A DNA stretch of 16,682 nt, from UHGV virus genome UHGV-0178820; one strand, given 5' to 3'. Shown one piece after another: positions 1,420 through 10,297 of this stretch (the first letter of the stretch is position 1; each line of letters opens with the position of its first letter). The notes beneath the pieces were generated by a model, which had not been told where the DNA came from, did no database searches, and was given only the letters and a program-made list of their open reading frames with translations. Made by a program: the position numbers and the translations under genes. Source of the DNA: a virus.

Positions 1420-3461
1420 TGTTTTATTCAGCCAATGAGCTGGCCGGTCTTCCTGGTTTGCCCGGTACAGTTCAGGGGGTGCGCTGGACGCTCAATCGGA
1501 TCACAGAGACGCACCCGGAATGGAAGCGCAAGCGTGAAGGCACCAAAGCATTCGAGTATCACATCGACTGCCTGCCCGCTGAAGCGCAGAAAGTTTTACG
1601 TAAGCGCCTGACCCATCAGGTCCTGGAAGATACGCAACTGCCCGCCGTGGTTGAGCAGAAGGCAGTTAAAAACGTCGCCGTTCGCGATGAACTGGAGGTG
1701 ATGGTCAAATGCCCGGAACTGGCATTACGCGAAGTCCAGGCACTGACTGACAAGCAAAAGGCCATCGCTGATGCGCGGATATTGCTGGCTACTGAAGTGC
1801 ATAAACTGCGCGAATACGCCGGAATGACCAGGAAGGCCGCGTTAAAGCACATCGTTGATGGTGTGCGCATGGGGGCGTTACCTGACCGCATTATCGAAGC
1901 AGCTAATACTGCAAATGCACGTCAGGGAAAGCGAACCGGTGTCAGCACCGGCAGCCTGGATAGCTGGTACTCCAGCTGGGTGATGGCGCGCGGTGATGCC
2001 AATCAGTTACTGGCGTTACTGGCTCCCGGTCATCATAAGGGAACACCGTGGGAGCAGGTCTGGTGGTTGAGCGATTTCTTTATGTTCTATCGCTCATGGA
2101 AGCGCCCGACCGTTGAATATGCGTATCGTGAGTTTTCAGCCTGGTGGCATGAAAAACACGCGAATGATGCGGGAATGCTGGCAGCACTGCCTTCAGTTCA
2201 CGCAGTAAGACGGGTGTTAAGCAACGTCCCGGTGATTGTTAAAGAGCGTTTCCGCTCCACCGGTTCAGCCTGGCGTTCGCTCAATCCCTTTGTGCGGCGC
2301 GACTGGAGCACATTACCGGTTAATGCGGTATGGGTCGGGGATGGTCACTGTATGAAAATGACCGCGTTTAACCCCCTTACCGGCAACATTTTCCGACCTG
2401 AAGTGACGCTGGTTATGGATGCAGGGCAGCGCTTTGTTGTGGGCTGGTCACTGTCCCTGTCGGAGAACGTGATAGCTGTTGCTGATGCGTTGCGTTACGG
2501 CATGGCACAGCACGGGATACCGCTGATTTATTACTCCGATAACGGGGGCGGCGAAAAAAACCGGGTGCTTGATGCCGATATTACCGGGATTCTGCCCCGT
2601 CTGGGTGTGGAACATCACACGGGGATACCAGGTAATCCGCAGGGGCGCGGGGTGATTGAGAGGCTTAACAAGGAAATTCCCCGGGATGTGGCCCTGAGTT
2701 TCCGGACGTACTGCTCAAAAGGAGCAGACAAGGAAACCGTAATGATGCAGCAACGGATTATGCAGTCAGCCATTAAGGCCACCCACAAAGGGAAAGAGCT
2801 GACAAAACGGCAGGTTAAGGCAAGGGATGAAATCCCCACCTTTGAGCAACTGATGGCAGCTATAGAGCTGGAGGTCAGACGCTATAACAACCGGCCACAC
2901 AGCAGCCTTCCTCGCAAAGAGGATGGCGAATATTACAGCCCGGCAGCGTATCGCCGGAAACTGATAAAAGAGCAGAATGTTGAAATTGATTTCCTGTCGC
3001 CGGAAGAACTGCATGAAATGTTCAGGCCGGAAGTGACGCGCAAAACATTTCGCGGGGAAATTCAGTTATTCAACAATATTTATTACTCGTATGAGCTGGC
3101 CGCAGAGCACGGGAATGAAGTCAGGGTCAGTTACGATATTCATGATGCAAACAGTGTCATTGTCCGGCGGGCTGATGGCTCTTATATCTGCGATGCCATC
3201 TGGAACGGTAACAAGGTTGATGCCTTCGCTAAACCAGTTATCGAACAAAAACTGGAGAAACGCGTCAAGGGCCGCATTGCACGGGCCACGCAGAAAATCG
3301 AAGAGGCTAAACGCGAGCTTACCCCGGCTATTACGCAGAAGCCTGAGTTTAATCTGGGATATGGACTGGAACGCCAGGAGAAAAAGGAAAAAGAAGAACT
3401 TTATTTATTCGTGTCTGACCGTGAGCGCAATTTAAAGAAAAACGGCACAAATAATCGTTAA
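1419..3461 (+). CDS. A: DDE transposase, MuA-like (680 aa)
   Basis: Size and position as Mu A; candidate DDE catalytic motifs VWVGDGH, YYSDNGGGE and a downstream acidic region; basic C-terminal tail; N-terminal LPGLPGT..GV motif typical of the MuA/repressor DNA-binding domain. Confidence 0.9.
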   Translation: MFYSANELAGLPGLPGTVQGVRWTLNRITETHPEWKRKREGTKAFEYHIDCLPAEAQKVLRKRLTHQVLEDTQLPAVVEQKAVKNVAVRDELEVMVKCPELALREVQALTDKQKAIADARILLATEVHKLREYAGMTRKAALKHIVDGVRMGALPDRIIEAANTANARQGKRTGVSTGSLDSWYSSWVMARGDANQLLALLAPGHHKGTPWEQVWWLSDFFMFYRSWKRPTVEYAYREFSAWWHEKHANDAGMLAALPSVHAVRRVLSNVPVIVKERFRSTGSAWRSLNPFVRRDWSTLPVNAVWVGDGHCMKMTAFNPLTGNIFRPEVTLVMDAGQRFVVGWSLSLSENVIAVADALRYGMAQHGIPLIYYSDNGGGEKNRVLDADITGILPRLGVEHHTGIPGNPQGRGVIERLNKEIPRDVALSFRTYCSKGADKETVMMQQRIMQSAIKATHKGKELTKRQVKARDEIPTFEQLMAAIELEVRRYNNRPHSSLPRKEDGEYYSPAAYRRKLIKEQNVEIDFLSPEELHEMFRPEVTRKTFRGEIQLFNNIYYSYELAAEHGNEVRVSYDIHDANSVIVRRADGSYICDAIWNGNKVDAFAKPVIEQKLEKRVKGRIARATQKIEEAKRELTPAITQKPEFNLGYGLERQEKKEKEELYLFVSDRERNLKKNGTNNR

Positions 3462-5888: not shown

Positions 5889-6122
5889 ATGCATCAGGAT
5901 ATAAAAGAGTACAGGGCCGGAAATAGTTGCGCGGCGTATTCGCTGGGCGCGTCCAGAGCAGAACAACGCGGCGATTATGACGAGGCAGAAAAACTGTGGC
6001 GCAAGGCAGCGCAAAGCCCGTGTAGCACCCTGCGCCGCATCTGGGCTGAACACCGGGCACAGTTCTGTGCCAATGCTCACCTGAAAGGATGGAGGCCGCA
6101 TCATGAACGCGAAGAACTTTAA
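5889..6122 (+). CDS. Small protein, possibly ANR-family regulator-like (77 aa)
   Basis: ATG at 5889 two nt after the stop of the preceding gene; GGGG SD-like motif upstream. Family call is a weak recollection. Confidence 0.5.
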   Translation: MHQDIKEYRAGNSCAAYSLGASRAEQRGDYDEAEKLWRKAAQSPCSTLRRIWAEHRAQFCANAHLKGWRPHHEREEL

Positions 6123-6294
6123 TCAGCTATATCCGGTGGGGACTCGTTTTACACATACCGACAGCGCAGTGTTTGGTTGTGGTCGTGTGGTGAAAACTGT
6201 TGCGCCAGCCAGAGATTTTAAATGTGGTTGTGTGGTTGAAATTAATGTCGAGCCTTATTTCGTAAAAGTCGAAACACTGAAAGCACCGCATTAA
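6103..6294 (+). CDS. Hypothetical small protein (63 aa)
   Basis: GGAGG 7 nt upstream of ATG 6103; overlaps the 3' end of the previous gene by 20 nt in another frame. Confidence 0.55.
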   Translation: MNAKNFNQLYPVGTRFTHTDSAVFGCGRVVKTVAPARDFKCGCVVEINVEPYFVKVETLKAPH

Positions 6295-6323
6295 TTTAAT
6301 TCGTTTTTAATTGTTATTTAAAA

Positions 6324-6357
6324 CAGGCGTAAACCCGCCGGGGCTGGCTTACGCCTG
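6324..6357 (-). terminator. Hairpin (9-bp stem CAGGCGTAA / TTACGCCTG) acting as a probable intrinsic terminator for the leftward 6435-6653 gene
   Basis: Perfect 9-bp inverted repeat with a GC-rich 16-nt loop that may pair internally; on the minus strand it is followed by a T-rich tract (complement of 6300-6323). It lies between convergent gene ends. Confidence 0.55.
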
Positions 6358-6434
6358 AATCTGAGGAAGTTTATTTATGAATATCGCTAAGCAAAAAAAA
6401 TTCGCCCGCGAAATTAATCTGACAATCGTTTGTT

Positions 6435-6653
6435 TTAATCGTCTTGCGACCAGTTCTCAATCGACAGCAGATGTTCATCCAGCGCCGCAGCCAGAACGAA
6501 CTCCCCACGTTCCTGAAGGCCGTGCTGGAAGTTGCGTAATTCAGAATCCAGGGCGCTGAGGTTCAGACAGCCATTTTCTGAAAGCTGTTTAACCAGAAAG
6601 CTCCACGCAGCTTTGTTAGCAGTAATTGCTGCCGCAATTTCATCATCAATCAT
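6435..6653 (-). CDS. Hypothetical 72-aa protein, transcribed opposite to the surrounding early operon (moron-like); acidic C-terminal tail
   Basis: Minus-strand ORF with consensus SD AGGAG 7 nt upstream of its ATG (complement of 6661-6665) and a hairpin plus T-tract downstream. Balanced, helix-like composition, unlike the overlapping plus-strand ORF. Confidence 0.65.
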   Translation of the reverse strand: MIDDEIAAAITANKAAWSFLVKQLSENGCLNLSALDSELRNFQHGLQERGEFVLAAALDEHLLSIENWSQDD

Positions 6654-6741
6654 TTTTTAACTCCTGATTGGGTATGTTGGGGCAGCGATTATGACAAGTG
6701 TTTTGTGGTTATAAGTTGATCAAAAACAATGAGTTACAACC

Positions 6742-7452
6742 ATGAAAGATAAATACATTGCCAAAATCAAAAAGCTGTTACGCCTTGCCAGAGGAACATC
6801 AAGCCCGGAAGAAGCCGCTAACGCTATTGCAAAAGCCCAGGCTTATATGCGCCAGCATGGCATCAGCGAAAACGACGCGGAATTGTTCGACATTCAGGAA
6901 GCTGCCAGCGCGGGTGCGCCGAGTGATGCCAGTACGCCGCCGCGTTATATGCACATCCTGTGTGACCTGGTCTGTAAAGCCTTCGGTGTCGAGTGTTACA
7001 TCTCCGGCGAATACAGGGCTTCTGGTTCACTCAAACGTTACGTGCGTTTTTATGGCTCTGACAGCCGCCCGGAAATCGCGGCCTACGCGTTTGATGTGCT
7101 TTCCCGTCAGATGATGACAGAGCGCAAGAAATATCAGGATAAACACTGCAAACGTTGCGGCCCGTCCACGCGGGTGGCCCGTGGCGACCAGTTCTGCGAA
7201 GGCTGGGTCTTTGGTGCCCGTGATGTCATTGCGGTGTATGACGTCTCCCCGGAAGAAAAAAGCCGCCTTGAGCTTTACAGAAAGAACCTGCACAGCACTA
7301 AGGGACTGCGCGACGGGGATATGCGCACGGCTAAAGCGTGTCGTGGTGCAGAGTTTGCCGCTACTGCCGGTTTTATCGCCGGGAAAAACGCCAGGCTGCA
7401 TCAGGGGGTTAATGGTCAGAGCAACAGACCGCTTGCACTGGGGAGGGTGTAA
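6742..7452 (+). CDS. DUF2786-like protein with Cys-rich C-terminal region (236 aa)
   Basis: N-terminal KIKKLLRLA......EEAANAIAKAQAYM matches the recalled DUF2786 signature; C-terminal CxxC-containing segment (CKRCGPS...FCEGW). Confidence 0.6.
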   Translation: MKDKYIAKIKKLLRLARGTSSPEEAANAIAKAQAYMRQHGISENDAELFDIQEAASAGAPSDASTPPRYMHILCDLVCKAFGVECYISGEYRASGSLKRYVRFYGSDSRPEIAAYAFDVLSRQMMTERKKYQDKHCKRCGPSTRVARGDQFCEGWVFGARDVIAVYDVSPEEKSRLELYRKNLHSTKGLRDGDMRTAKACRGAEFAATAGFIAGKNARLHQGVNGQSNRPLALGRV

Positions 7453-9829: not shown

Positions 9830-10297
9830 ATGCAGACCTTCAGTGAAACAGATCTTCGCGATGCGCAGGCACTGCTGCCCGATTCCGTGCAGCAACTGAT
9901 TAGCGTGATTGGCTTCCCCGCCCTGACCCGGTTAATCCGTTCTTTTGGTGGCGTGACGTTAAGCGGTAAAACCGGCGCACACGCAGGACGCACCGGCGGT
10001 GTCCATGCCCTGTTACATGACGTGCTGACCGAAGACGAAATCAACAAACTGATCCGCTTTCTTGGCGGTGCACCGTTTTACATTCCCCGTTGTGATCATG
10101 CTTTACGTGCCCTGCGTAACACCCGTTTTATGGCTGATTTACAGCAGCATGTAAAAGGCGGATGCTCACACCGGCAGGCGCTGGCACTGCTCTGTCCCCG
10201 TTACGGCATTTCAGACCGGTACGCATGGCAACTGATACACCGACGACAAAAACAGACTTCGCTGAAAAGCCCCACCCAGGTGGGGCTTTTTGATTAA
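9830..10297 (+). CDS. Mor/C-family transcriptional activator (middle/late gene activator homologue)
   Basis: C-terminal region FYIPRCDHALRALRN.....GCSHRQALALLCPRYGISDRYAWQLIHR matches the recalled Mu Mor/C pattern (YIPR......R..R, then HTH). Located between gemA and the lysis genes. Confidence 0.75.
   Translation: MQTFSETDLRDAQALLPDSVQQLISVIGFPALTRLIRSFGGVTLSGKTGAHAGRTGGVHALLHDVLTEDEINKLIRFLGGAPFYIPRCDHALRALRNTRFMADLQQHVKGGCSHRQALALLCPRYGISDRYAWQLIHRRQKQTSLKSPTQVGLFD
10268..10291 (+). terminator. Rho-independent terminator overlapping the 3' end of the Mor/C-family gene
   Basis: AGCCCCAC / GTGGGGCT stem followed by TTTTT; the stop codon (10295-10297) lies just after the T-tract, so the hairpin is encoded within the last codons. 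Confidence 0.7.

Follow-up and report, generated by a model that had tools for sequence, protein, structure and literature searches.

A candidate moron-type gene on the reverse strand of a Mu-like prophage early operon

The early operon of the Mu-like prophage represented by UHGV virus genome UHGV-0178820 (16,682 nucleotides, hereafter the window) runs rightward and carries a single small gene on the opposite strand, which encodes a protein of 72 amino acids (aa). We propose that this is an independently transcribed accessory gene of the moron type, that its protein is the product under selection, and that in the lysogen this protein works by binding to another protein; for this composite reading we estimate a probability of roughly 0.6. 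The reading draws on a reverse frame that is conserved as protein, on a promoter-like element that recurs upstream of the gene, and on the presence of the gene as extra DNA between phage genes that are adjacent elsewhere.

Comparisons were made across seven Mu-like lineages, from Escherichia coli, Salmonella (L014-L016), Serratia fonticola (L017) and metagenomic or other sources (L021, L022, L023 and L027), and for the region upstream of the gene across nine lineages, two of which lie outside intact prophages. The features on which the argument turns are the following.

6435-6653, minus strand: coding sequence of the 72-aa acidic four-helix protein, from its translation; the product is identical to RefSeq WP_000564495.1 ("hypothetical protein")
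6661-6665, minus strand: Shine-Dalgarno (SD) sequence AGGAG, from the sequence; GGAG, GAGG or AGGA stands at the equivalent place in all nine lineages
6688-6696, minus strand: predicted extended -10 element TGTCATAAT, the hexamer of which ends 34 nt before the ATG
6716-6723, no strand assigned: palindrome TTGATCAA holding a GATC (Dam methylation site), at about -40 relative to the predicted start of leftward transcription
6358-6434, minus strand: 3' untranslated region of the presumed leftward mRNA, 77 nt, defined by geometry; its length and sequence blocks are conserved in seven lineages
6324-6357, no strand assigned: conserved hairpin rich in guanine and cytosine (GC), a possible leftward terminator or 3' stabiliser and an intercistronic element of the phage backbone
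6377-6559, plus strand: open reading frame (ORF) of 60 aa on the early strand, with the SD GAGGAAG at 6363-6369
6575-6743, no strand assigned: 169-bp segment deleted in most E. coli relatives, from alignments, lying between the 8-bp microhomologies ACAGCCAT and ACAACCAT
6742-7452, plus strand: DUF2786/DUF7168 early gene (Pfam E-values 5e-13 and 2e-29), head-to-head neighbour of the 72-aa gene in every Mu-like lineage

The reverse frame encodes a conserved acidic protein

Translation of the minus-strand ORF gave the 72-aa protein ending in ...SIENWSQDD that had been quoted in the original prediction, a note made from the sequence of the window without database searches. The nearest annotated relative of the window is a prophage in the eut operon of enteropathogenic E. 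coli (EPEC) E2348/69, which shares 96% identity over 6100-6900 and 99.3% over 6300-6741. In the annotation of that strain the counterpart of the gene (NC_011601.1, 2721955-2722173, minus strand) is, as had been claimed, the sole leftward gene between the first gene to the right of the repressor, at the ner position, and the DNA methyltransferase gene, all others being rightward.

Since the window contains many antisense ORFs of at least 60 aa, the length of the frame says little and is not significant by itself. GC skew fell below zero only over 6320-6649, in agreement with coding on the minus strand. The ratio of non-synonymous to synonymous substitution rates (dN/dS) of the minus frame was 0.122 in one sister pair (17 synonymous and 9 non-synonymous changes) and 0.145 in a second (21 and 15), and the corresponding ratio of uncorrected proportions (pN/pS) was 0.27 between two family members located outside intact prophages. 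Homologues of matching length at 29-64% identity, together with a dN/dS of 0.12-0.15, validate the gene, and on these sequence comparisons we regard 6435-6653 as very probably protein-coding.

An exhaustive HMMER and profile search placed the protein in a rare family of 16 clusters, all of 72-77 aa and with 29-94% identity to the query, originating from E. coli, Salmonella, Serratia and Trabulsiella (Enterobacterales) and from metagenomes. Two family loci were present in IMG/VR, and no members were found among 185,579 species-representative genomes (GTDB). The family alignment contains 11 invariant columns (M1, A8, A9, I10, A12, N13, A16, W17, L20, L24 and A55) and the invariant motif AAIxANxxAW. 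AlphaFold2, run on the 16-sequence alignment, predicted four helices (residues 2-12, 14-26, 32-48 and 52-71) with a mean pLDDT (predicted local distance difference test) of 88.7, and in this model the conserved alanine-rich N-terminal helix bearing the motif makes up the core of the protein. Net charge was -9 for the window protein and ranged from -2 to -9 across all members.

The original prediction could not place the protein in a family. In profile searches the window protein matched nothing in Pfam, PHROGs, NCBIfam or PADLOC, and a Pfam scan of all 16 family members returned nothing at an E-value below 0.01. A profile search of the PDB gave a weak match to a designed protein only, and comparison with PDB structures and viral predicted structures gave nothing past generic helical bundles. 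A literature search found no paper that mentions the protein or its locus tag, and papers on DUF2786 were uninformative. The product is a four-helix acidic protein of an undescribed, rare family, and its gene is probably an uncharacterised example of the prophage accessory or moron type.

Upstream and downstream elements of a putative leftward transcript

The SD is the consensus AGGAG, 7 nt ahead of the ATG at 6653, just as originally described, and is conserved in nine lineages. Further upstream, the hexamer of TGTCATAAT is the sole match to TATAAT at five or more of six positions within 90 nt, and every one of the nine lineages has a single -10-like hexamer (CATAAT, TAGAAT, AATAAT or GATAAT) that ends 29-37 nt before the ATG and, in four of them, is preceded by an upstream TG. 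The chance of finding such a hexamer is about 0.07-0.15 per lineage and about 3e-7 jointly for seven lineages, for a position window that was picked post hoc. The GATC within TTGATCAA is the only one between 1503 and 8300, and the site is depleted across the window as a whole (18 observed versus 51.5 +/- 6.9 expected). Every Mu-like lineage has a GATC at 66-72 nt upstream of the ATG of the small gene, and three of them have two copies at 11-bp spacing, a pattern by which the gene may come under Dam- or SeqA-dependent control. A rightward promoter for DUF2786 in 6654-6741 was also considered and rejected, as ATGACA and TATAAG are just 13 nt apart and the promoter scan was negative.

At the other end of the gene, the hairpin at 6324-6357 forms 12+2 base pairs as minus-strand RNA, with a predicted energy of -24.2 kcal/mol (z = -4.9; none of 200 shuffled sequences reached this stability), compared with -19.2 kcal/mol as rightward RNA. 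It is found downstream of the gene in all seven Mu-like lineages, and in each the leftward RNA is more stable, by 1.7-7.3 kcal/mol, because of G-U pairs. The hairpin arm CCCCGGCGGGTTTACGCC (leftward strand) is identical in four of these lineages and differs by one base in the other three. Near-invariance across such divergent lineages suggests a sequence-specific role for the arm, or a joint at which recombination takes place.

These elements can be assembled into a single proposed transcript. A sigma-70 promoter on the extended -10 element, lying outside the repressor-controlled early promoter, would start leftward transcription near 6681 and give a short mRNA with a leader of about 27 nt, the AGGAG SD, 72 codons and the 77-nt 3' untranslated region; this mRNA would end at, or gain stability from, the conserved hairpin. 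The selected product would be the protein and not the mere act of transcription, and in the lysogen the protein would most likely bind another protein, of the host or of an incoming phage, like other small prophage accessory proteins. Autonomous transcription of the gene is likely. A function of the protein during lysogeny in our estimate falls a little short of even odds, and expression in the lysogen, like any benefit to the host, is inferred.

The gene is extra DNA in an old syntenic unit and persists outside functional prophages

In 7/7 Mu-like lineages the small gene occupies the early region on the opposite strand, head-to-head with DUF2786/DUF7168 and tail-to-tail with a gene of 63-66 aa, and the unit is syntenic at 33-64% protein identity. 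By this measure the unit is an old syntenic component of an Enterobacterales Mu-like clade and not a recent insertion.

Morons are recognised as extra DNA between genes that are otherwise adjacent in related phages (Cumby, Davidson & Maxwell 2012; PMC3594210). The E. coli prophages 08-00022 and 20KM0223N run from the 63-aa gene through the same hairpin and the same SD to DUF2786 with nothing else in between, and the Shewanella Mu-like phage MuM16-2 has DUF3164 and DUF2786 without the reverse gene. Given these empty sites, the 72-aa gene is extra DNA in the sense central to that definition.

Intact copies were also found outside functional prophages. The L025/L026 locus (2825-2916 and 3001-3234), an apparent domesticated remnant, has an intact small gene next to what is left of DUF2786, a 5' fragment with a frameshift; the small gene follows a gene for a protein of over 886 aa without an assigned family, and insertion-sequence (IS) genes adjoin. 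In Serratia odorifera the gene is on its own, surrounded by IS elements, and has kept the -10-like element but has no DUF2786 nearby. A large upstream protein was considered as a common partner of these non-Mu copies and rejected, the two large proteins being unrelated. Taken with the pN/pS of 0.27, the persistence of intact copies in such settings suggests that the protein is under selection independently of the phage lytic programme.

Evidence weighing against the proposal, and erosion of the gene in E. coli

Several observations weigh against the reading proposed above, beginning with the transcription unit itself. There is no recognisable -35 element, and a -35/-10 consensus scan calls no promoter at this position. 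The leftward tail beyond the hairpin, GUUUUAAAUAAC, has only 4 U, and the terminator rule applied to it makes no call; in STEC346, which carries the full-length gene, the leftward tail past the hairpin has no U run. Moreover, the same hairpin lies between the 63-aa gene and DUF2786 in the prophages that lack the gene. It is also duplicated in M8, OkiPb and STEC346, where it flanks unrelated rightward cassette genes on both sides. Because it is found without the gene, the hairpin provides no evidence of a dedicated terminator. Consequently, of the hairpin plus T-tract originally reported, the strong hairpin stands and the T-tract is weaker than described, and the idea that the gene has a terminator of its own is not upheld. 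The other observations, namely the conserved SD, the -10-like element in 9/9 lineages, the extra DNA and the survival of the gene beside a decayed neighbour, fit an autonomous unit of the moron type.

The duplicated hairpins lie at 1724 and 2337 in L002, at 434-492 and 1529 in L004, and at 826 and 1450 in L011. The cassettes that they bracket, in other E. coli Mu-like prophages, encode proteins of 130 aa and 177-181 aa.

Composition and homology add two further points on the same side. GC content over the 72-aa gene is 0.49 compared with 0.52-0.57 in the neighbouring genes, a small difference, and the fold and profile searches yielded no functional clue.

Further contrary evidence comes from E. 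coli, in which we surveyed the 58 complete genomes with any match to the locus. Eight carry the full unit, 35 carry the 169-bp deletion and 15 have the hairpin region only, so that 43 retain some of the gene's sequence and 35 of these 43 carry an inactivating deletion. Along with the predicted promoter and the SD, the small gene loses codons 1-26 through the deletion, whereas the DUF2786 ATG is preserved. Comparison of the full-length alleles yielded 5 non-synonymous and 0 synonymous changes, which gives no sign of purifying selection, and allele P0001 replaces the near-invariant Q43. Because full-length alleles are outnumbered by deleted ones and all five allele substitutions are non-synonymous, the gene is, on the evidence of these alleles, dispensable for the phage and eroding in E. 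coli, and the window copy may be under relaxed selection. As a separate observation, the deletion (L003, L007-L013) brings the stop of the plus-strand ORF that overlaps the gene to within 14 nt of the DUF2786 start.

This raises the alternative that the gene has become a relic in the E. coli lineage concerned, decaying, intact by chance and no longer active. The 8:35 ratio of full-length to deleted alleles and the 0:5 ratio of substitutions, including the loss of Q43 in P0001, are what such decay would leave. Set against this, no invariant residue is missing from the window copy, which also has the SD and the -10 element, and five changes are too few to separate relaxed from purifying selection (P of about 0.28 under neutrality, calculated by hand from site counts). 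On balance we consider inactivity of the window copy unlikely.

A conserved early-strand start opposite the 3' untranslated region

The plus-strand ORF at 6377-6559 is annotated by RefSeq in some relatives, including several deletion-allele genomes, and its annotation is inconsistent. It is open for 60-81 codons across the seven lineages. Within the overlap with the small gene, the plus-frame dN/dS was 1.9-3.9 and the product is of low complexity and unconserved. When the synonymous codons of the minus gene were reshuffled, a plus ORF at least as long arose in 20-83% of trials in six of the seven lineages, with a P of 0.03 in one. For these reasons we interpret the overlapping part as an antisense shadow of the gene, and dual coding in this part is ruled out by the dN/dS and the reshuffling simulation. 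The possibility that the plus-strand ORF is the translated one, which the original prediction had named as the finding that would overturn it, is therefore not borne out for the overlap, where the minus frame has a dN/dS of 0.12-0.15.

The segment that separates the hairpin from the 3' end of the small gene gave a different picture. Here an SD, an ATG and exactly 17 codons are conserved across seven lineages, the codons following the pattern M-[NK]-x9-[RS]-E-[IVA]-x2-[TA]-I, and plus codons 1-32 have accumulated 6 synonymous and 0 non-synonymous changes within E. coli. This conservation makes a short translated leader on the early strand plausible, and its translation may carry ribosomes across the antisense stretch. 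The conserved SD, ATG and 17-codon leader (MNIAKQKKFAREINLTI...) occupy 6363-6434 (+). Provided that the leftward transcript reaches the hairpin, its 3' untranslated region at 6358-6434 is antisense to both the SD (6363-6369) and the ATG (6377) of this micro-ORF.

Alternative roles for the unit

With its mRNA antisense to the early transcript and to the ribosome-binding site of the leader, the unit has the geometry of lambda oop or P22 sar, and such a role is live either as a rival to the accessory-protein reading or as an additional function. As a rival, it would make leftward transcription, and not the protein, the main function. The RNA would be complementary to the early transcript over about 6326-6680, including the SD and ATG of the micro-ORF, and by RNase III cleavage, by a translational block with Rho-dependent polarity, or by polymerase collision it would restrict leaky early transcription into DUF2786, GemA and Mor, thereby stabilising lysogeny. 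The conserved GATC at about -40 would then render the promoter sensitive to Dam methylation or replication. Such an antisense or convergent-transcription checkpoint would account for the strict conservation of orientation within the early operon in 7/7 Mu-like lineages, for a 3' untranslated region that spans an SD and ATG of the early strand, which are conserved and keep a constant spacing to the hairpin, and for a conserved GATC within a GATC-depleted region. It would not account for strong purifying selection on the amino acids (dN/dS 0.12-0.15) or for a gene that stays intact outside any early operon, and the interval 6000-7000 has no match in Rfam. We judge this unlikely to be the main function, at about the level of the relic hypothesis.

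Protein and antisense functions could coexist. In the fullest version, which we regard as a long shot, the unit would be a dual-function lysogeny checkpoint of the Mu-like clade, in which a Dam-sensitive leftward promoter, bearing the one conserved GATC of the GATC-depleted early region, would drive the mRNA. The 3' untranslated region of this mRNA would cover the site at which ribosomes bind the leader ORF and so impose Rho-dependent polarity on leaky early transcripts before GemA/Mor, the same mRNA also encoding the new acidic four-helix protein that acts on a host or phage target.

A second alternative would make the small protein a partner of the DUF2786/DUF7168 early protein, as an inhibitor, an antitoxin-like neutraliser or a regulator, which would explain the head-to-head pairing and the shared control region of about 90 bp. 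The two genes are adjacent and divergent in 7/7 Mu-like lineages, and a DUF2786 remnant still lies beside the small gene in L025; such synteny may, however, be merely inherited. DUF2786 is intact in the 35 E. coli genomes without the small gene and in the empty-site prophages, Shewanella and Pseudomonas B3-type phages with DUF2786 never had the small gene, and the S. odorifera copy has no DUF2786 nearby. Since DUF2786 so widely persists without the small gene, we consider a partnership improbable.

Finally, we consider it very improbable that the plus-strand ORF is the genuine gene, with a chance antisense frame on the minus strand: its SD GAGGAAG, its integrity in all 43 E. coli genomes (the minus ORF being intact in 8), the 6:0 changes over codons 1-32 and the conservation of its start and about 17 codons in seven lineages are outweighed by the contrast in dN/dS across the overlap (1.9-3.9 versus 0.12-0.15), an open length expected from synonymous reshuffling of the minus gene, an unconserved low-complexity C-terminal half, and the distant homologues and confident fold of the minus-strand protein.

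Relation to known systems

The accessory-gene reading places the 72-aa gene beside phage morons such as HK97 gene 15 and lambda bor and lom (PMC3594210). Like these, it is extra DNA in a compact unit with its own SD, a conserved promoter-like element and a 3' hairpin, and it is dispensable, patchy in distribution and kept in a decayed prophage. Unlike them, it is barely distinct in GC content, belongs to the old syntenic features of its clade and is not a recent horizontal addition, ends at a hairpin that is part of the backbone, and lies convergent inside the early (transposition/regulatory) operon instead of the late region.

The lambda oop and P22 sar RNAs resemble the present unit in being leftward within a rightward early operon, in their stable end hairpin and in their complementarity to an early-strand ribosome-binding site. 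Those RNAs are non-coding, whereas here a reading frame is under purifying selection (dN/dS 0.12-0.15) and has family members outside any operon.

ANR (AraC negative regulator) proteins are likewise small (about 70-77 aa), helical and prophage-borne, yet they are encoded on the early strand and have no sequence or profile relationship to the 72-aa protein. Remote homology to the ANR protein encoded nearby was specifically considered and rejected, as the 72-aa protein has no NF033650 match and hhalign gave a probability of 0.2%.

Acidic inhibitors and DNA mimics such as Ocr, ArdA and many anti-CRISPRs offer a generic likeness: they too are small and strongly negative (-9 here), present a variable surface over a conserved core and occur in mobile elements. 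In sequence and in fold, no match between them and the 72-aa protein was found.

Should the lysogen express the gene, the accessory genes of Mu-like prophages in enteric pathogens would gain a further family of small proteins, so far uncharacterised; among these pathogens is the prototype EPEC strain E2348/69, which encodes an identical protein. The placement of the gene is unusual: it is convergent in an early operon, it runs antisense to an early-strand translation start that is conserved, and a conserved Dam site adjoins it. This offers a tractable case in which to ask whether lysogeny of Mu-like phages is secured by internal antisense units. If it is no more than a dispensable phage gene, very many others like it exist and its interest is modest.

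Prophage context and additional features of the window

The window covers the left part of a prophage of the Mu-like (transposable) type. Its genes are a repressor-side ORF, a ner-like helix-turn-helix gene, a gene for a 680-aa Mu-type transposase and one for a 297-aa AAA+ MuB-like protein, followed by the small early genes, comprising DUF3164, an ANR-family gene, the 63-aa gene and DUF2786/DUF7168, and then by GemA, Mor, lysis and head genes. When sequenced phages were searched at the DNA and protein levels, neither the 800-bp region around the gene nor the 72-aa protein had a match, and isolated phages match the full-length window in short patches only. The ANR gene was identified as follows.

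5889-6122, plus strand: ANR family gene (NF033650, E = 4e-16, 58.6 bits)

Its place is in the Mu-like early operon, two genes before the 72-aa gene, and it is conserved in the E. coli relatives. Other opposite-strand genes occur near GemA/Mor in related prophages, one of 136 aa in Salmonella (L014/L016, 2261-2671) and one of 175 aa in Serratia (L017, 2049-2576); they have no Pfam match and may be further morons. Between the divergent repressor-side ORF and the ner-like gene, an 18-nt inverted repeat at 1125-1164 may be an operator. A perfect 12-bp hairpin (AAAAGCCCCACC/GGTGGGGCTTTT) at 10265-10290 marks the end of ORF 9830-10297, which occupies the Mor position by synteny, and resembles a bidirectional terminator.

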